A DNA stretch of 64,000 nucleotides from Candidatus Poribacteria bacterium (GTDB taxonomy: Bacteria; Poribacteria; WGA-4E; PCPOR2b), in the NCBI GenBank assembly GCA_963665285.1, contig OY762266.1, positions 685,758-749,757 on the forward strand, written 5' to 3'. The translations under genes and the position numbers were made by a program. Position 1 is the stretch's first letter. Each line of letters starts with the position of its first letter. Of this stretch, positions 2,145 through 12,584 are shown piece by piece. The notes below the pieces were generated by a model. It saw only the letters and a program-made list of their open reading frames with translations, had not been told where the DNA came from and made no database searches.

Positions 2145-2777
2145 ATGAAGAATCTGCTGAATAAATTAAAACAGAAACAACCTCAAACGGCAGACGATGC
2201 CACACTGCTTACTGTCACCGATGCTGCCAAGGAGAAGATTCGATCGGTGATTGAAGACCAAGGGATGGAAGTTGAAGGGCTGCGCATTAGCATCAATGGC
2301 CGTTCCGCATCAGCGTTTGAGTATGGGCTAGGTCTCGAAGTTGAGCTTGATCCAGGTGATGTTGTGGTTGATTGCGGCGATTTCAAGGTTTTGATTGATC
2401 CGGAAAGTGCTGAAAACCTAAAGGGGGCAATCATTGATTATGTGGAAGACCTGAATTCAAACGGTTTCAAGATCGATAACCCAAACACACCGACATGGGA
2501 TAATCCCAAAGCCCAAGCGATTCAGCAACTCATCGACGAACGGATTAATCCGGCGGTTGCATCGCACGGGGGGCAGATCGATTTACTGGATGTTACAGAC
2601 GATTCCATCTACATCCACATGGGTGGCGGCTGCCAAGGGTGTGGGATGGCAAACGTCACATTGAAGCACGGCATCGAGGGGATGATTCAAGAACATTTCC
2701 CCGAAATTAAGAATATTATTGATACCACCGACCACGCCTCCGGCACGAACCCTTATTACGAATCGAGTAAAGGGTAA
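2145..2777 (+). CDS. nfuA: Fe-S cluster carrier NfuA
   Basis: Degenerate A-type carrier N-domain plus NifU C-domain INPAVASHGG...GGGCQGC...DTTDHASGTNPYY; AAGGAG RBS. Confidence 0.88.
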   Translation: MKNLLNKLKQKQPQTADDATLLTVTDAAKEKIRSVIEDQGMEVEGLRISINGRSASAFEYGLGLEVELDPGDVVVDCGDFKVLIDPESAENLKGAIIDYVEDLNSNGFKIDNPNTPTWDNPKAQAIQQLIDERINPAVASHGGQIDLLDVTDDSIYIHMGGGCQGCGMANVTLKHGIEGMIQEHFPEIKNIIDTTDHASGTNPYYESSKG

Positions 2778-2883: not shown

Positions 2884-3558
2884 ATGTTTAAGCGTCGATT
2901 CATGTTTTATATTGTTGTGGTGGCTGTGCTTTTTAGTGGCTATTTGGGATATAGGTTTTACGAACACCGCGTTAAACCGACACCAGCAGCGAAGGCAATG
3001 CAGTTTGAGGCTAACGAGACTGATCGTGTGTTTTTAGAGCGAGCAGAACCTGTAAGCCAACTGCCAAGGGATCTCGTAAAGCAATCTCCATTACTGATCA
3101 CTCCTGTGTGGACGTATACGCCGCAGAAATGGGATAGTGGTGCTGTTGATTCGGTAAACGCTATTGCCTTGGCGACCGATGCCGTAGGGTTTGAAGCAAC
3201 CAAGCTGCCGGACGGAAAAGCATACCGACTTCCGGCACCAGAAGAAAAGACACTTCTCGCGGGGGACGTAATCAGCGCTGAAGAGGTAATTTATAGAATC
3301 TTCACAACCCCGGAGAACGCGCCTGAAATTCCTTTCGATGAACCAATCTTTCGTCATGATGTCCCGCTGTCGGAAGACCCTCCGATTCCCTACCCATTGA
3401 TAGCGAAGTTTCTTAATAAACAGGATGATACCTCTTTAACAGCACTCACAGATTGGATAAAATCGGTAGGCGGAGCAGCCCGGGCGCAATCATTAATTGA
3501 GGCAGCGGGGCTATCGGATTCTATACGGATTGAAACAGTGACTATTCTCCGTCGATAA
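2884..3558 (+). CDS. Hypothetical protein with N-terminal membrane anchor
   Basis: 224-aa ORF, GGAGG RBS, hydrophobic N-terminus. Confidence 0.7.
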   Translation: MFKRRFMFYIVVVAVLFSGYLGYRFYEHRVKPTPAAKAMQFEANETDRVFLERAEPVSQLPRDLVKQSPLLITPVWTYTPQKWDSGAVDSVNAIALATDAVGFEATKLPDGKAYRLPAPEEKTLLAGDVISAEEVIYRIFTTPENAPEIPFDEPIFRHDVPLSEDPPIPYPLIAKFLNKQDDTSLTALTDWIKSVGGAARAQSLIEAAGLSDSIRIETVTILRR

Positions 3559-3669
3559 AGGCAAGCGGAAACGAGAAACGTGAAGATAATTCTGATGATA
3601 AGACGCCAGAGCAATAATTCTCTGTAAGGGCAGATCGCTGTATCTGCCCCTATTTTCTCAAGGGTCAAA

Positions 3670-5193
3670 TTGATGATGAAACGTCCGGGAGCAATATTAC
3701 TCATTTCCTGTTATGAACTAGGACATCAGCCTATCGGTCTTGCCTCCCCACTTGGATTTCTTGAGCGCGCTGGATATACGCCGGACGTGATGGACATCGC
3801 TGTTGAAACCTTCGATGTGGAAAAAGCTGCCCCCGCAGAATTTGTTGGGATCTGTGTGCCGATGCACACCGCCCTCCGTTTAGGTGTCCATGTCGCAACC
3901 CGCCTTCGCAGAATCAATCCGACCTGCCACATCTGTTTTTACGGTCTCTACGCCTCGCTGAACGCTGAATACCTACTCCAACATCATGCCGATTCAGTCA
4001 TCGGTGGCGAATATGAAACACCGATGGTCGAATTGGTTGACTCCCTTGCAGATAGCACTCATATCGAGATAGCGGGTGTCCTCCGACGCGAGGATGCCGA
4101 ATCACTTCAAGATACCCCGGAATCCAAACCGCTGCTGAGACCTTCACACAATAGGGTAAGCGTTTATAAACCGCGCAGCGATTCGTCTGGCGAACCCCTC
4201 GCCGTGCCGATTCGGAAACGATTGCCACCACTTGACAATTATGCACACCTTGAACAGGATGGTGTCGCCCATATCGCCGGTTATGTAGAGGCAAGCCGTG
4301 GGTGCAAACACCTTTGTCTCCACTGCCCCATCCCACCAGTTTATGAGGGCAAATTCTCCGTCGTGCCGAAAGAGATTGTGCTTGAGGATATTCGAGCGCA
4401 AGTCGATGCCGGTGCAGCGCATATCACATTCGGCGATCCTGACTTCCTGAATGGTCCCAAACACGCGCTTCGGATTGTTCAATCCATGCACGAAGCGTTT
4501 CCGAACCTGACCTTCGACTGCACAACTAAAATTGAGCACCTCCTGAAACATCGTGCCCTCCTGCCGGAACTCCGCGATTGTGGTTGTATCTTCATTGTTT
4601 CCGCTGTTGAATCGCTCAACGACACGGTACTTGACAACCTGCAAAAAGGGCATACATGCGCGGACGTTTTTGATGTCATTGATCTTTTGAAGGAGGTTGG
4701 GATTGCCATTCGACCCTCACTTGTTCCGTTCACGCCGTGGGAGACCCTCGATAGCTATCTATACCTCCTCGACTGTGTTGAAAGCAAAGGGCTAATCGAT
4801 CATATCGATCCCGTACAGTACGCGATTCGGCTGCTTGTTCCGCCCGGTTCTTCTTTGCTGTCCCGACCATCTATTCAACCGTATCTTGGGGCACTCGATC
4901 AGGAGTCCTTTACCTATCGCTGGAACCACCCTGATCCGCGAATGGATGAACTCCACAAAGCGGTCAGTGTCGCCGTAGAGAGCGCGTCGCAGATCGATGA
5001 AGATGCGTTTGTAACCTTCCATCGGGTGCACAACCTCGCGTATGCCTCAATCGGTAAAGAGGAATCCTCCGTTGTGTTCCCAATGGATTTTGAGCCTGAT
5101 CGAAAGCGACCGCCTCGCCTGACTGAAGATTGGTTCTGCTGAGCGGAACCAACACAGGGTCAGTTAGACCCACTCAACCATAGTGAATTCTAG
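3670..5193 (+). CDS. CUAEP/CCAEP-tail radical SAM selenoprotein (B12-binding-like N-domain); Sec at TGA 5140-5142
   Basis: SRGCKHLCLHC (CxxxCxxC). Reading through TGA gives WFC-U-AEPTQGQLDPLNHSEF to TAG 5191-5193. SECIS-like hairpin follows the TGA. Confidence 0.85.
5157..5171 (+). promoter_or_regulatory. Putative bacterial SECIS hairpin
   Basis: GGGTC-AGTTA-GACCC; stem starts 14 nt after the UGA, with G at loop position 2. Confidence 0.7.
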
Positions 5194-5346
5194 AAACAGG
5201 TAGACACTTCTCCAGTAGGCATTGCAGGAGAGTCGTTTTGTGGGAGGGAAATCTTCTAAGTTTGCCTGCGAAATCAGAGGTGTCCGCATAATCGGGGTTG
5301 AAAACCCCTCCCACAGCGTCCAAACAGTTATGAACTTTGCTATAGT
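5179..5346. repeat. MITE/REP-like intergenic element between convergent genes
   Basis: CATAGTGAATTCTAGAAACAGGTAGACACTT matches the reverse complement of ~15988-16018; internal GTGGGAGGG...CCCTCCCAC inverted pair. Confidence 0.5.
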
Positions 5347-5351
5347 GCGAC

Positions 5352-6641
5352 TTACGCCATTAGTTTTTCGATTTCATCAATTGTCTTCGGTACGGCTGCT
5401 GTTAGGACTTCACAGCCGGACTCGGTGACCAGAATATTGTCCTCAATCCGCACACCAATTCCCGAATACTCCGGTGGAATGTCTTCGCTATCAGGATCAA
5501 TGTAGAGTCCCGGTTCGACCGTCATCACCATTCCCGGTTGGAAGGTTCTGTGTTCTTCCCCCTCCCGCGTTTTTGCCACGTCGTGAACCTCTACCCCCAG
5601 CATGTGTCCGACGCTGTGCATATAAAATTTTCGATATTCCTGTTCCTCGATTATCTTTTCTTTCTCTCCGACCAATAACCCTAACTCCAGCATTGCTTCA
5701 GTCAACATCTCTACCGCCTTCTGAGCAGGATCACCAATCGAGACGCCGGGACGAATGCTTTCGATAATCTCGCACTGGGCATCAAGCACCGACTGGTAGA
5801 TTGCCCGCTGCGGATCTGTAAACTTGCCGTTGGCGGGAAATGTTCGCGTTATATCGCCGCAATAGTATTGGTATTCGCATCCCGCATCAATGAGTACCAA
5901 ATCACCATCTTCGATTTGGCAGTCGTTTGTCGTATAGTGCAGGGTCGTTGCGTTTGCGCCTTTCGCTACAATCGTGAGAAATGCGGGACCTGTACCGCCG
6001 TTCTTCCGATAGATTGAGTCAATCAGGCTTTCCAACTCATATTCGTATATGCCGGGGCGAACCGCCCCCATTGCTGTCATGTGTGCTTCAACACTGATGT
6101 CTACCGCTTTGCGAATCCGTCCGAGTTCCGTTTCATCTTTGATGAGACGCATTCCGGCAAGGAGGTCGGTAGGGTCAATTAAGGTGGTAGGTCCCGTTCC
6201 CTCGCGCAAACGATGCCGTCTATACCCCTTGAGAAGTTCAATAATTTTCTGATTGAAAGCATCGTCCGCACCGAACCCGTAGTATAGCCGCTCCGATGTC
6301 CCGATATATTCGGAGATTTTTTCGTCAAATTCCTCAATAGGATAGGCTTCATCTGCGCCGAAACGTTCCTTTGCACCTTCGACACCGGCGCGCTTGCCGG
6401 TCCATACCTCCTGTTCAGGGGCACGGGGACGGACAAATAAAACATATTGATGTTCAGGGTGATCTGGGGCAATGACGCAAACCGCCTCCGGCTCCTCAAA
6501 GCCGGTTAAGTAGTAGAAATTGGCGTCTTGACGGTATCTATATTCGGTCGAGTGGGTGCGCATTGCCTGCAATGCACTGGGAAAGATTGCAACCCCTCCC
6601 GCTATTTTTTCCATAAATGCTTTGCGTCTATGCTCGTGCAT
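5352..6641 (-). CDS. pepP: Xaa-Pro aminopeptidase (aminopeptidase P)
   Basis: YRYRQDANFYYLTGF N-domain; LIDAGCE, DITRTFP, HSVGHMLG..VHD, TVEPGLY, GVRIED metal motifs. Confidence 0.92.
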   Translation of the reverse strand: MHEHRRKAFMEKIAGGVAIFPSALQAMRTHSTEYRYRQDANFYYLTGFEEPEAVCVIAPDHPEHQYVLFVRPRAPEQEVWTGKRAGVEGAKERFGADEAYPIEEFDEKISEYIGTSERLYYGFGADDAFNQKIIELLKGYRRHRLREGTGPTTLIDPTDLLAGMRLIKDETELGRIRKAVDISVEAHMTAMGAVRPGIYEYELESLIDSIYRKNGGTGPAFLTIVAKGANATTLHYTTNDCQIEDGDLVLIDAGCEYQYYCGDITRTFPANGKFTDPQRAIYQSVLDAQCEIIESIRPGVSIGDPAQKAVEMLTEAMLELGLLVGEKEKIIEEQEYRKFYMHSVGHMLGVEVHDVAKTREGEEHRTFQPGMVMTVEPGLYIDPDSEDIPPEYSGIGVRIEDNILVTESGCEVLTAAVPKTIDEIEKLMA

Positions 6642-6848: not shown

Positions 6849-7412
6849 ATGAAAATCTATACCAAAACTGGAGACACCGGTGAGACAGGGCTTTACGGTG
6901 GGACACGGGTGTCTAAAGACGCGATGCGCGTTGAGGCTTGCGGGACGGTTGACGAACTTAACGCCTGCATCGGGTTCGTGAGATCGCAGATTCAGGACGA
7001 GGAAATCGACGCAATTCTCCATCGGATCCAAAACGAACTCTTTGATATCGGGGCAGATCTCGCAACATTGGAGTCGCACCCGAAGGCAGCAAGCCTGCGA
7101 ATCCCGCCAACCTTGACCCCTGAACTAGAAAGAGAGATTGACCGGTTTGGCGACCAACTTCCACCGCTAAAACAGTTCATTTTGCCCGGTGGTGCAGCGG
7201 GTGGTGCAGCGGTTCACCTCGCCCGAACTGTTTGCCGTCGCGCCGAGCGGTGTGTTGTCACGCTTGTTAAAGGGGAAGTGGTAAATCCAGAGGTGATTAT
7301 TTACCTTAACCGGCTCTCCGATCTGCTATTTGTACTTGCCCGCACAGTCAATCACCGGTCAGACGAATCGGAACCTGTTTGGGAATCGCAGACGGAACGG
7401 GCGAAACCGTAA
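6849..7412 (+). CDS. pduO: ATP:cob(I)alamin adenosyltransferase, PduO type
   Basis: KIYTKTGDTGETGL, GTVDELN, FILPGG, ARTVCRRAER, YLNRLSDLLF. Confidence 0.93.
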   Translation: MKIYTKTGDTGETGLYGGTRVSKDAMRVEACGTVDELNACIGFVRSQIQDEEIDAILHRIQNELFDIGADLATLESHPKAASLRIPPTLTPELEREIDRFGDQLPPLKQFILPGGAAGGAAVHLARTVCRRAERCVVTLVKGEVVNPEVIIYLNRLSDLLFVLARTVNHRSDESEPVWESQTERAKP

Positions 7413-8713: not shown

Positions 8714-8796
8714 TCTACTAGCGGGCAGACGGAAGATTCAAAAATGTCAGCACACTAACTAATCTCCAAAGAAATTGTCATTGCGTGGGACAAAAT

Positions 8797-9522
8797 ATGA
8801 ACAGACCAAACCAATCCGAGTCTGAAAACGACCTAAATGCAGTTTTTGAAAAAATCCAAGAGATAGCAGCAAAATCAAACGATGGTGATTATATCTATCG
8901 CGGCGAACCTGAACACTATCCAAAAGTTTCATCAAGCCTTTGGCGCGAATGTAGTAAAATATTGGGCATTGACCAATTTGATATAAAGGTTATCCAAGAT
9001 CAAATGCTGGAAGTGGTTAAAAGCTATACCCGCTATACCCCCGAAACAGAAGACTTTGAAATCTTAACCGAACTCCAACACTACGGCGGTCAAACCAACC
9101 TGATAGACTTTACAACTGACTTTCTAATTGCCCTCTTTTTCGCCTGCGATGGTTCTTATAAAACCCGTGGTAGGGTTATCCTGTTCCAAAAAACTGAGGA
9201 GAAAACCAAAGAATATGGAATCGAGGAACCTCGGAATCCGCAAACCCGTGTCATGGCACAGAAAAGTATATTCGTTCAACCGCCCAAGGGCTTTATTGAA
9301 CCAGAACAATACAAGACAATCACGATCGCAAAAAAACTCAAACAACCTATGTTAGACTACCTACGAAAGCATCACGGTATATCTACTAGAACTATCTACA
9401 ACGACCTCCATGGATTTATAAGAAACCAGAGCATCCATCAAGAGACATACATGGCACTTTATAAGGGCGCGACGCAGCCGCGCGAGGACAATTTAGGTTT
9501 TGATCAGATGGATTCCCATTAA
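8797..9522 (+). CDS. FRG domain protein
   Basis: YIYRGE, LQHYGGQTNLIDFT...ALFFAC, RVMAQKSIF. ATG 8797 preferred over GTG 8785. Confidence 0.85.
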   Translation: MNRPNQSESENDLNAVFEKIQEIAAKSNDGDYIYRGEPEHYPKVSSSLWRECSKILGIDQFDIKVIQDQMLEVVKSYTRYTPETEDFEILTELQHYGGQTNLIDFTTDFLIALFFACDGSYKTRGRVILFQKTEEKTKEYGIEEPRNPQTRVMAQKSIFVQPPKGFIEPEQYKTITIAKKLKQPMLDYLRKHHGISTRTIYNDLHGFIRNQSIHQETYMALYKGATQPREDNLGFDQMDSH

Positions 9523-10839: not shown

Positions 10840-10979
10840 ATACCACTTACCGTTGAATTATCATTTATAACTGATAAGCAATGGGCGTCGAAAATGACGT
10901 GCAGGGGAAGATAGGAGAAATATTCATGGGGGTGACTTATTTCTTATCAATCTTTATCCCTGATGAAATGGAGCATCTT

Positions 10980-12584
10980 ATGCAAGACCGCAATTCAGCA
11001 GAATACCGACAGTGGAAACGAAAGGTCAAAGAACGCGATGAATATACTTGTCGCCGATGTGGAGTTGATACTAACCTTGAAGTCCATCACATCAAACCGT
11101 ACGACAAGTATCGTGTTCTTGCTACTGACGCTGACAATGGTATCATACTCTGTAGAAACTGCCATGCTCGTTTGAAAGGGAAAGAAGAAAGTACCAATCT
11201 GCTGACAATCATTAAAGAAGTTACCGGTCAACACGATAGTCGAACCGACGATCAATTACAGCGTCTTCATAGTAAATTTTGCCACTATCTGGATCGCTTG
11301 TTAGATTCAGAAAATCCAGACACAAGGAATAACATTGTTGATCAGCTAGATATGCACCTCTCAGCTTATCCTGATTCACTTAATCAGTTTCTTTCTCTTA
11401 TCCGATACCGTCTAGACACGGAAAATGGATCTGATGGAGGATTCGCCGGGCAGATGGCGACCGAATTTCTTATAAGGTACTACAAGGGTAAGGTGGTTAT
11501 TGAGAACGATAGCGAAGTATCCGAGTGGTTTCACGAAGCCGCTCAACAAGGTAGGGCAACAATGCAAACCTGCCTTGGTTGGATGTATCACCATGCTTTA
11601 ATGGTTGAACAAAACGATGAGGAGGCAGTTAAGTGGTTTCAAAAAGCCGCCCAACAGGGATATGACAGAGCTCAGTATAGCCTTGGTTGCATGTATGAAA
11701 CTGGCAGGGGTGTTGAACAGAACGATGGGGAGGCGGTTAAATGGTTTCAAAAAGCCGCCCAACAGGGATGTGACATAGCCCAATATAGCCTTGGTGGTAT
11801 GTATGCAGAAGGCAGAGGGGTTGAACCAAACAATAAGGAGGCGGTTAAGTGGTTTCAAAAAGCCGCCCAACAGGGATATGTCGAGGCCCAATATATCCTT
11901 GGTGTAGTGTATACATCGGGCTTGGATGTTGAACAAGACCATGAGGAGGCAGTCAAGTGGTTTCAAAAAGCCGCCCAACAAGGTGATACCACAGCCCAAA
12001 CTCATCTTGGTTTGATGTATGCAGATGGCAAGGGCGTTGGGCGGGACCATAAGGAAGCTATCAAATGGTATCGTAAAGCCGCTCAACAAGACTTTGCTAT
12101 AGCCCAATATATTCTTGGCGTGGTGTATACAAAGGGCTTGGATGTTGAACAGGACTATAAGGAGGCGGCCAAGTGGTTTAAAAGAGCAGCTGAACACGGT
12201 AATGCGACAGCTCAATATATCCTTGGGGTAGCGTATGTAGAAGGCAAAGGCGTTGAACAGGACTATAAGGAGGCGGCCAAGTGGGTTCAAAAAGCGGCTG
12301 AACAAGAAGACACTTCAGCCCAAAATACCCTTGGCATGATGTATCAACTTGGTTTTGGCGTTGAAGAGGACACTGAGAAAGCGGTCAAATGGTTTTGCAA
12401 AGCGGCTGAGCAAGGACACCCTCATGCACAGAATGATCTTGGTTATAGGTATGTAAACGGTTGGGGTGTTGAGCAAGACTATAAGGAAGCAGTCAAATGG
12501 TTTCAAAAAGCAGCTGAACAAGGACATGATGAGGCACAGGAAAATCTTCGTCGTTACCGTACGGAGGCGTCCACTACTGACTGA
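10980..12584 (+). CDS. HNH endonuclease fused to Sel1-like repeats
   Basis: CRRC...EVHHI...N.IILCRNCH, then ~9 36-aa Sel1 repeats (AQY.LG.MY..G.GVEQD..EAVKWFQKAAQQG). GGAG before ATG 10980; ORF open from 10881. Confidence 0.88.
   Translation: MQDRNSAEYRQWKRKVKERDEYTCRRCGVDTNLEVHHIKPYDKYRVLATDADNGIILCRNCHARLKGKEESTNLLTIIKEVTGQHDSRTDDQLQRLHSKFCHYLDRLLDSENPDTRNNIVDQLDMHLSAYPDSLNQFLSLIRYRLDTENGSDGGFAGQMATEFLIRYYKGKVVIENDSEVSEWFHEAAQQGRATMQTCLGWMYHHALMVEQNDEEAVKWFQKAAQQGYDRAQYSLGCMYETGRGVEQNDGEAVKWFQKAAQQGCDIAQYSLGGMYAEGRGVEPNNKEAVKWFQKAAQQGYVEAQYILGVVYTSGLDVEQDHEEAVKWFQKAAQQGDTTAQTHLGLMYADGKGVGRDHKEAIKWYRKAAQQDFAIAQYILGVVYTKGLDVEQDYKEAAKWFKRAAEHGNATAQYILGVAYVEGKGVEQDYKEAAKWVQKAAEQEDTSAQNTLGMMYQLGFGVEEDTEKAVKWFCKAAEQGHPHAQNDLGYRYVNGWGVEQDYKEAVKWFQKAAEQGHDEAQENLRRYRTEASTTD

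Follow-up and report, generated by a model that had tools for sequence, protein, structure and literature searches.

The window analysed here is a stretch of 64,000 nucleotides (nt) from a Candidatus Poribacteria bacterium (assembly GCA_963665285.1, contig OY762266.1, positions 685,758 to 749,757 of the forward strand), whose genome is available as one 6.26-Mb contig. The subject of this work is a gene lying near the start of the window, at positions 3670 to 5193, that encodes a radical S-adenosylmethionine (SAM) enzyme. Under translation table 11 its open reading frame (ORF) covers 3670-5142 on the plus strand (490 aa) and is terminated by a TGA at 5140-5142. This TGA sits in frame within TGG TTC TGC TGA GCG GAA CCA, and the next in-frame stop is the TAG at 5191-5193. 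When TGA is translated as selenocysteine (Sec, U), the product has 507 residues: U is residue 491, and 16 more residues follow before the TAG. The C-terminus thus runs ...PPRLTEDWFCU and continues after WFC-U as AEPTQGQLDPLNHSEF, ending in NHSEF. The likely start, judged from the sequence, is ATG 3673, preferred over the alternatives TTG 3670 and ATG 3676 because the homologs open with MMKRPG; from this start the protein would have roughly 506 residues. The features of the gene, all on the plus strand, are the following.

3673..5193, plus strand: coding sequence of the predicted CUAEP-tail, B12-binding-like radical SAM selenoprotein (from the sequence, its translation and the NCBIfam family NF040546).
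4303..4326, plus strand: CxxxCxxC motif (C212, C216 and C219), the predicted ligands of the radical SAM [4Fe-4S] cluster (read from the sequence).
5130..5152, plus strand: 10-bp hairpin carrying the TGA as its 3-nt loop (from the minimum free energy structure of 5125-5200).
5137..5151, plus strand: tail motif Cys490-Sec491-Ala-Glu-Pro (from the sequence and its homologs).
5140..5142, plus strand: TGA predicted to be decoded as selenocysteine, residue 491 (from the sequence and the codons of orthologs).
5157..5171, plus strand: putative selenocysteine insertion sequence (SECIS) hairpin, with a 5-bp stem GGGTC/GACCC and the loop AGTTA (from folding and covariation among orthologs).

It is very probable that this gene encodes a radical SAM enzyme of the NF040546 family with a predicted Sec residue, its TGA being recoded by the genome's own SelA, SelB, tRNA-Sec and SelD. 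This high confidence, which derives from sequence comparison, covers the identity of the enzyme and the recoding of its TGA, and excludes its mechanism of action.

The identity of the protein is clear from its match to NCBIfam NF040546, "CUAEP/CCAEP-tail radical SAM (seleno)protein". The cut-off of this model is 500 bits and the read-through product obtains 684.3, in a match that spans residues 9-500 of the protein and positions 1-467 of the 468 in the model, crossing the Sec position. By its sequence, the window protein is a full-length member of this family, which was therefore already named and flagged as a (seleno)protein. The first-pass annotation had recognized such a CUAEP/CCAEP-tail family and regarded it as having no characterized reaction. 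This agrees with the literature search on the family, which retrieved a single paper, where the function is given as unknown. That preprint lists the family among the rare Cys-Sec (CU) selenoproteins, terms it uncharacterized, and ties the CU motif to heavy-metal chemistry (10.1101/2022.07.06.499078).

Regarding domains and fold, the protein matches Pfam Radical_SAM PF04055 with 48.4 bits, and B12-binding PF02310 with 31.7 bits, marginally below the cut-off of 32.1. A B12-binding-like Rossmann domain thus occupies the N-terminus, ahead of the radical SAM core. Its AlphaFold2 model is confident overall, with a predicted local distance difference test (pLDDT) value of 86.3 and a predicted template modeling (pTM) score of 0.87. 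The top fold matches retrieved by Foldseek were AprD4 (6fd2), TsrM (6wte) and OxsB (5ul4), with E values from 1e-19 to 1e-15, query-normalized template modeling (TM) scores of 0.53-0.64 and a sequence identity of 13-18%; MiaB and RimO also occur among the fold matches. A MiaB/RimO-like auxiliary Fe-S cluster on the N-terminal domain was considered and ruled out: C14, C86, C89 and C306 are conserved only among close relatives (in an alignment from which the incomplete locus L090 was excluded), and are replaced by T, A, A/V and L, respectively, in many rows of the wider family. As a separate observation, residues 158-174 (window 4141-4191) have a pLDDT below 50 and correspond to about 16 extra residues with respect to shorter orthologs, found in some Poribacteria copies only. 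A disordered insert that separates the two domains is the probable explanation.

The first line of evidence that the UGA encodes Sec is the presence in the genome of the complete machinery, as the first-pass annotation had proposed to check. selA (602 bits), selB (366), tRNA-Sec (76.6) and selD (372) all score above their cut-offs, the first three being contiguous at C1:1112918-1116458, and selD itself carries one in-frame TGA. The second line comes from orthologs. Among 81 orthologous loci, namely that of the window and the best 80 from other genomes, the codon at the Sec position is TGA in 52 and TGC or TGT in 29, which is the Cys/UGA alternation that the first-pass annotation had proposed to look for. 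WFC-U-AEP occupies residues 488-494, the C[U/C]AEP motif recurs in the 80 further loci, and the tail AEPT..Q[LF]..PL is kept after the codon whether this is TGA or a Cys codon. In a scan of 176 genomes of the phylum, 113 exceeded the NF040546 cut-off, and each of these rows contained exactly one in-frame TGA. Gene calls in public databases truncate the Sec forms at this codon, yielding homologs of 488-489 aa that end in WFC, and the Cys forms read onward as ...WFCCAEPTQGQLDPL.... The gene thus very probably encodes a hidden selenoprotein, as first suggested, and the three findings named beforehand as unfavorable to that idea, a genome devoid of Sec machinery, homologs genuinely ending at WFC and a lack of conservation of AEP, were not encountered: the machinery is there, the Cys homologs continue into CCAEPT..., and AEP is kept in 33-37 of the 37 CC-type representatives of the family-wide alignment described below.

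A tree built from the residues before the codon only (a quick IQ-TREE search under LG+G4) places four Sec/Cys changes along the family. In one case the Cys form L073 (Schlesneria) is sister, with full support, to the Sec form L091 (Pirellulaceae), an apparent recent switch from Sec to Cys or the reverse. It was also observed that, when L073:3356-3401 is set against L091:7540-7585, L073 keeps the decayed remains of a SECIS stem.

The third line of evidence concerns the RNA. The hairpin at 5157-5171 is made of a stem strand at 5157-5161, a loop at 5162-5166 (AGTTA, with G in second position) and the complementary strand at 5167-5171, and nineteen bases (5143-5161) separate the TGA from the loop. 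Both the read-through into WFC-U-AEPTQGQLDPL and this geometry had been described in the first-pass annotation, and both were confirmed. Energetics do not favor the element: the 46 nt from the TGA fold with -8.5 kcal/mol (z -0.50), and 56 of 200 shuffled sequences fold as well or better, so that by energy alone this stem of only 5 bp is no better than chance. Rfam likewise gave nothing at its gathering score in the window and, at E<=10 on 5100-5260, one chance miRNA match only. The hairpin is accepted as real because of comparative data. The 52 Sec genes, which give 51 distinct rows when aligned without gaps, were compared with the 29 Cys-codon orthologs, and each of the five pairs of the core was found to be formed in 49-51 of the 51 Sec rows. 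Two pairs show two-sided changes: at 33-41, 31 of these rows have U-A and 18 have C-G, and at 32-42, 41 have G-C and 9 have A-U. None of 500 shuffles reached the covariation score of 0.189 (the shuffles gave 0.139), which drops when the partners are slid. The loop bases AGUU do not vary among the Sec rows. Pairing of this helix falls to 31.5% in the 29 Cys genes, only 5 of which can form its closing pair. Outside Poribacteria the stem reaches 7-8 bp and is clearly stable (for instance, z -3.28 in L045). On these grounds, the hairpin behaves as a SECIS element directing the recoding, as the first reading had it.

A second hairpin, absent from the first-pass annotation, deserves mention. Two hairpins are predicted in the region 5125-5200 (-21.9 kcal/mol, z -2.37, equaled by 4 of 200 shuffles), and the one enclosing the UGA, at 5130-5152, is the stronger. 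Its stem is also found in the Cys genes, because the codons for W-F-C and A-E-P largely force the pairing. Only one pair (columns 10-18), which joins the U of the Cys codon to the third position of the Ala codon, is free to vary. It is present in 49 of the 51 Sec rows, compared with 16 of the 29 Cys rows, a bias inseparable from shared ancestry because there are just four Sec/Cys transitions on the tree.

The selD gene of the same genome follows a comparable design: UGA GCG, 11 nt in total, and then a CAGUCC-AGUU-GGACUG hairpin, so that selD and the radical SAM gene share the loop C-AGUU-G and GCG as the first codon after the UGA. The shared loop lends indirect support to a possible recognition of the hairpin by SelB. 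A loose whole-genome scan for this hairpin design in long open frames found seven places, the two genes among them. As observations in their own right, selD (G000:C1:1670324, minus strand, locus L016) is itself a selenoprotein gene, reading ...KTCG-U-AAK..., and in-frame TGAs followed by AGUU-loop hairpins in long open frames also occur at G000:C1:3412641 (minus strand, FWRGAY-U-PKD) and G000:C1:2120620 (plus strand, ATF-U-QCE). The latter two are possible candidates for further selenoproteins, the first perhaps redoxin-like.

The nearest characterized relative of the window protein, by sequence, is ArsL, the arsinothricin enzyme whose Cys-rich tail had served the first-pass annotation as an analogy. 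The ArsL family NF040542 is the second-best match (328.3 bits, residues 9-437), the third best scoring 43.6. According to two preprints, ArsL cleaves SAM into methylthioadenosine and a 3-amino-3-carboxypropyl (ACP) species; its C-terminal RCCLKC sequence provides three cysteines that bind As(III); and removal of the tail abolishes product formation while SAM cleavage is retained (10.1101/2024.02.01.577332, 10.64898/2026.04.29.721666).

Conservation across the wider family was assessed by scoring the protein against 1.84 billion representative sequences and classing the best 150 by their tail: 38 end in W[FY]C, 47 carry CC[AS][EAM]P, 4 have an ArsL-type tail and 61 were classed as fragments or other, mostly fragments. 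The 69 of these 150 that were 420-560 aa long and had a recognizable tail were aligned with MAFFT, together with the query P0001 as the mapping reference. CxxxCxxC is invariant in 29 of 29 WFC-ending rows, 36 of 37 CCAEP rows (with one gap) and 3 of 3 ArsL-tail rows. The only cysteines conserved family-wide are C212, C216 and C219 and the C490-C/U491 pair. C490 is invariant, and the 37 CC-type representatives all have a Cys next to it, at position 491. The ArsL CC was placed by MAFFT on the C490-C/U491 pair, a cysteine comparison that rests on three ArsL-tail representatives only.

Considering now the surroundings of the gene, the window contains, among others that include a sigma-70 factor, the following neighbors.

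3-1079: ORF of an IS701-family transposase (NF049999, 181.7 bits), truncated by the 5' edge of the window.
2145..2777, plus strand: NfuA-like Fe-S carrier with IscA/HesB and NifU domains, two genes upstream of the radical SAM gene (from domain matches).
2884-3558: membrane-anchored protein of unknown function.
3628..3649, plus strand: terminator-like hairpin and T-rich tail in the gap that separates the radical SAM gene from the gene before it (consensus match only).
5352-6641, minus strand: Xaa-Pro aminopeptidase, convergent with the radical SAM gene.
6849-7412: PduO-type cobalamin adenosyltransferase.

The hairpin at 3628-3649 suggests an independent transcript for the radical SAM gene in this genome. 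Farther away, an FRG-domain protein (8785-9522) and a protein with an HNH nuclease domain and nine Sel1 repeats (10881-12584) are unrelated to it.

When the ORFs of all 81 loci were clustered, a different arrangement emerged outside Poribacteria, where the genes downstream of the radical SAM gene, in the same orientation, encode first a DUF169 protein (PF02596) and then an L-amino-acid-ligase-like ATP-grasp enzyme with the domains ATP-grasp_4 PF13535, LAL_C2 PF18603 and ATPgrasp_N PF18130. In the 38 non-Poribacteria loci with at least 2.3 kb of downstream sequence, DUF169 was found in 25, the ATP-grasp enzyme in 27 and a NifU-domain gene in 14. NifU-domain genes, in three different architectures, are present in 19 of the 20 Poribacteria-labeled loci and in 17 of the 61 others; NfuA is known to serve LipA and MiaB. 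Taken as one pathway, the radical SAM, DUF169 and ATP-grasp genes would have a wide distribution, covering Poribacteria, Nitrospirota, Methylomirabilota, Rokubacteria, Planctomycetota and Acidobacteriota, and a literature search for DUF169 together with radical SAM found no paper. In a planctomycete/verrucomicrobial clade the radical SAM gene is followed by DUF169 and by a gene for a 166-aa protein that replaces the ATP-grasp gene. This protein belongs to no known family (loci L057, L059, L060, L063, L071, L079, L082, L086, L098 and L103), its sole match being a weak one to Invasin_D3.

A close association is also observed in Poribacteria. In the scan of the 176 genomes, with the radical SAM gene identified by the NF040546 cut-off and the ATP-grasp ortholog by E<=1e-60, the former was present in 113 genomes and the latter in 119; both occurred in 113 and neither in 57. 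No genome had the radical SAM gene without the ATP-grasp gene, and six had the ATP-grasp gene alone, two of them with fragments of the radical SAM gene at contig ends. Within a single genus (40 genomes) the counts were 24 and 25, with 24 shared. DUF169, searched with its family model, was detected in 105 of the 176 genomes and in 99 of the 113 bearing the radical SAM gene, often directly adjacent to it. An initial indication that DUF169 was unlinked in Poribacteria, derived from a single-protein query at E<=1e-30 (24 of 176), was discarded as an artifact of the query. From these data, it is probable, with some reserve, that the radical SAM, DUF169 and ATP-grasp proteins act in the same pathway.

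The ATP-grasp partner provided a further observation. The Cys of its R[SA]IGGxC motif is invariant in the 28 full-length operon copies, the alignment being limited to the 28 ORFs of at least 380 aa, and in four Poribacteria genomes (loci L111-L114; G175:C3, G143:C113, G147:C1 and G135:C71) this same Cys is encoded as TGA, with the frame conserved for about 115 codons past it. The genome of the window encodes a Cys in its own copy (L108:2377). Based on these sequences, the TGA form is probably an unrecognized selenoprotein form of the ligase. A hairpin with the loop CGAUU was also seen 12 nt after the ATP-grasp TGA, in four sequences only.

How could these elements be integrated? By analogy with ArsL, an enzyme that works in an ArsL-like manner, with its Cys-Sec tail holding a thiophilic atom or substrate, is tentatively proposed. 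Of the models available this is the best, a mobile tail keeping a soft atom in place in the active site, even if the odds remain below even. In this scheme, the [4Fe-4S] cluster would split SAM reductively, the vicinal Cys-Sec pair of the flexible tail would position the thiophilic atom or substrate at the active site, and this would then be coupled to a SAM-derived fragment. Such a fragment is the ACP group in ArsL, and the product would accordingly be an amino acid, which the ATP-grasp enzyme would receive and ligate, while delivery or repair of the Fe-S cluster would fall to the NifU-type carrier. An amino-acid product of the ArsL type would fit the handover to an amino-acid ligase, and the fact that two enzymes of the module have a Cys that can be upgraded to Sec fits the handling of a thiophilic group. 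Extended to its full length, the proposal becomes an undescribed pathway in which the radical SAM enzyme, DUF169 and the Cys/Sec ATP-grasp ligase would carry out ACP transfer to the tail-bound atom, yielding a methionine-like heteroatom amino acid, then a thiol/selenol handover to the ligase and finally a dipeptide, with two enzymes using Sec for one soft atom; this complete sequence of events is, as a whole, speculative and rather unlikely. Binding of a metal(loid) by the Cys-Sec tail, the chemistry suggested by the first-pass annotation, is no more than plausible by the same analogy, in loci (81) that have no arsenic gene context. Selenium itself as the substrate was considered and weakened by the finding that five of five Cys-form Nitrospirota genomes (completeness not given) lack a selD over the cut-off, which argues that selenium is not a pathway substrate via selenophosphate. 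The genomic context suggests a pathway for a small molecule in which a soft atom is handled, with selenium as a catalyst and not as a substrate.

A number of findings pull against this interpretation and must be taken together. The window protein, with its 328.3 bits, does not reach the ArsL cut-off of 450. H66 and H328, invariant in the CUAEP family, are F and M/L/I in the ArsL rows. The tail of the window protein (E..WFCUAEP) is acidic and not RCCLKC, offering two thiol/selenol groups versus the three of ArsL, and it is modeled with a pLDDT of only 55-77. No arsM, ars or other metal(loid) genes lie within 12 kb in the window, and no ars, arsM or methyltransferase genes are found among the conserved neighbor clusters of the 81 loci. 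As for the module, the partners are dispersed in the genome of the window, with the radical SAM, ATP-grasp and DUF169 genes mapping to 0.69, 0.377 and 3.72 Mb, respectively; the ATP-grasp gene is present in only two of five planctomycete genomes of the clade with the 166-aa protein (completeness not given); DUF169 is absent from 14 of the 113 Poribacteria genomes bearing the radical SAM gene, including all 11 of family f2; and the co-occurrence counts overstate the evidence because related genomes are not independent. The dispersed ATP-grasp copy (G000:C1:377050-378276) is 59% identical to an operon copy. No gene tied to the system was recognized around the dispersed ATP-grasp and DUF169 copies, whose neighbors are a FIST protein, parts of a branched-chain amino acid transporter, a peptidase S15, a MoxR ATPase, an Ldh_2 protein and a CofH-like radical SAM protein.

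The foremost alternative for the tail is that the Cys-Sec pair acts as a redox-active selenenylsulfide arm that, instead of binding the substrate, would complete the radical reaction by donating electrons or a hydrogen atom, as the C-terminal GCUG of thioredoxin reductase forms a redox-active selenenylsulfide arm. A vicinal Cys-Sec pair on a flexible C-terminal stretch suits this role, Cys can stand in for Sec and vice versa while the rest of the tail stays unaltered, and there are no linked metal(loid) genes; the selD-less Cys-form Nitrospirota, too, would be understood if selenium were a catalytic improvement and not a substrate. Against this stand the precedent of ArsL, the closest characterized homolog, which is reported to bind its substrate by the tail cysteines, and the invariant Cys/Sec of the partner ligase, which is easier to explain as the handover of a thiophilic group than as redox chemistry in an ATP-grasp enzyme. 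On balance, a redox arm is a less likely explanation than a tail that holds a thiophilic atom.

It could also be argued that the protein is a cobalamin-dependent (class B) radical SAM methyltransferase, methylating a small molecule or the tail-bound atom instead of transferring an ACP group. The B12-binding-like N-terminal domain, recognizable by its fold, would agree with this view, as would weak matches to PhpK, HpnR, BchE and other B12 radical SAM families (25-44 bits), the presence of TsrM, OxsB, TokK and CysS among the fold matches, and the cobalamin adenosyltransferase gene at 6849-7412. However, the B12 domain falls just below the Pfam cut-off, the best fold match is AprD4, an enzyme not known to use cobalamin, the adenosyltransferase neighbor is confined to 17 closely related Poribacteria loci, and the protein scores seven times as high with ArsL as with any methylase family. 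Methyl transfer is considered unlikely.

Far weaker is the notion that the TGA is a true stop, so that the protein would end at WFC and the downstream similarity would be non-coding or accidental. The public gene calls do terminate there, and the hairpin of the window is weak by itself, but the Cys-codon orthologs continue into the same AEPTxxQ[LF]xPL tail, the hairpin covaries only in the TGA genes of a family whose model NF040546 runs across the codon, and the genome has the full Sec machinery; this explanation is highly improbable and close to refuted. Finally, it is scarcely credible that the 5157-5171 hairpin serves instead as an intrinsic terminator for the convergent Xaa-Pro aminopeptidase gene. 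Its minus-strand reading was flagged as terminator-like (a 5-bp stem with the tail TGTGTTGGTT) and would make a weak terminator, and the two roles could coexist. However, the hairpin lies about 180 nt past the aminopeptidase stop, the terminator scan gave 2 sites against 2.0 expected from shuffles, and conservation by compensatory changes extends to phyla in which the gene downstream has the same orientation; the comparative data can be accounted for without a terminator.

What do these results add? The selenoprotein finding is less novel than first thought, because NCBIfam already names the family as a (seleno)protein, and it is best described as a correct re-discovery, of value mainly to annotation: the majority of public gene models of Sec forms stop at the TGA, without the catalytic residue and the tail. 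What is new is the module of the radical SAM, DUF169 and ATP-grasp genes, with NifU alongside, and the probable Sec form of the ligase. The near-perfect co-inheritance, the Sec-recoded Cys of the ligase, the NifU carriers and the Cys hosts devoid of selD make the question of function testable. If the proposal were true, a non-canonical chemistry known so far only from ArsL would be extended, and an ATP-grasp enzyme would join the selenoproteins.

The system can, in closing, be placed beside those already known. With the NF040546 family it shares an identical domain order and C[U/C]AEP tail, and no feature sets the two apart. At the RNA level, the hairpin resembles the SECIS elements of the bacterial fdhF type, for which spacing rules are embodied in bSECISearch, in its short distance after the UGA and in a G among the first two loop bases; it differs in being very small (5 bp), in lying within a coding sequence for the conserved QGQ[LF][DG]P, in being accompanied by a second hairpin that encloses the UGA itself, and in having no match in Rfam. 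AprD4, TsrM and OxsB share the B12-domain radical SAM fold, and none has a Cys-Sec tail. A mobile tail with a vicinal pair of soft ligands is likewise found in MerA, whose C-terminal tail carries a vicinal Cys-Cys, and in the CU of the MerB-like, HgcA and MerT selenoproteins; this is a resemblance of design only, the proteins being non-homologous and no mer or hgc genes lying nearby. The partner ligase has its domains in common with its nearest relatives of solved structure, the L-amino acid ligases BL00235 (3vot; E 8.5e-39) and BacD (about 1e-12), which have no Cys at the R[SA]IGGxC position where that of the partner is invariant. Among characterized enzymes the closest likeness is to ArsL, with which the window enzyme shares the N-terminal motif xYExGxQP, the CxxxCxxC motif, a vicinal Cys pair near the C-terminus and the lack of any other conserved cysteines. 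The ArsL-tail representatives end in KRCC[IL][KR]C, whereas the pair of the window protein lies at least 16 residues from the end, and where ArsL has arsM and ars genes as neighbors, the CUAEP enzyme has DUF169, an ATP-grasp ligase and NifU.

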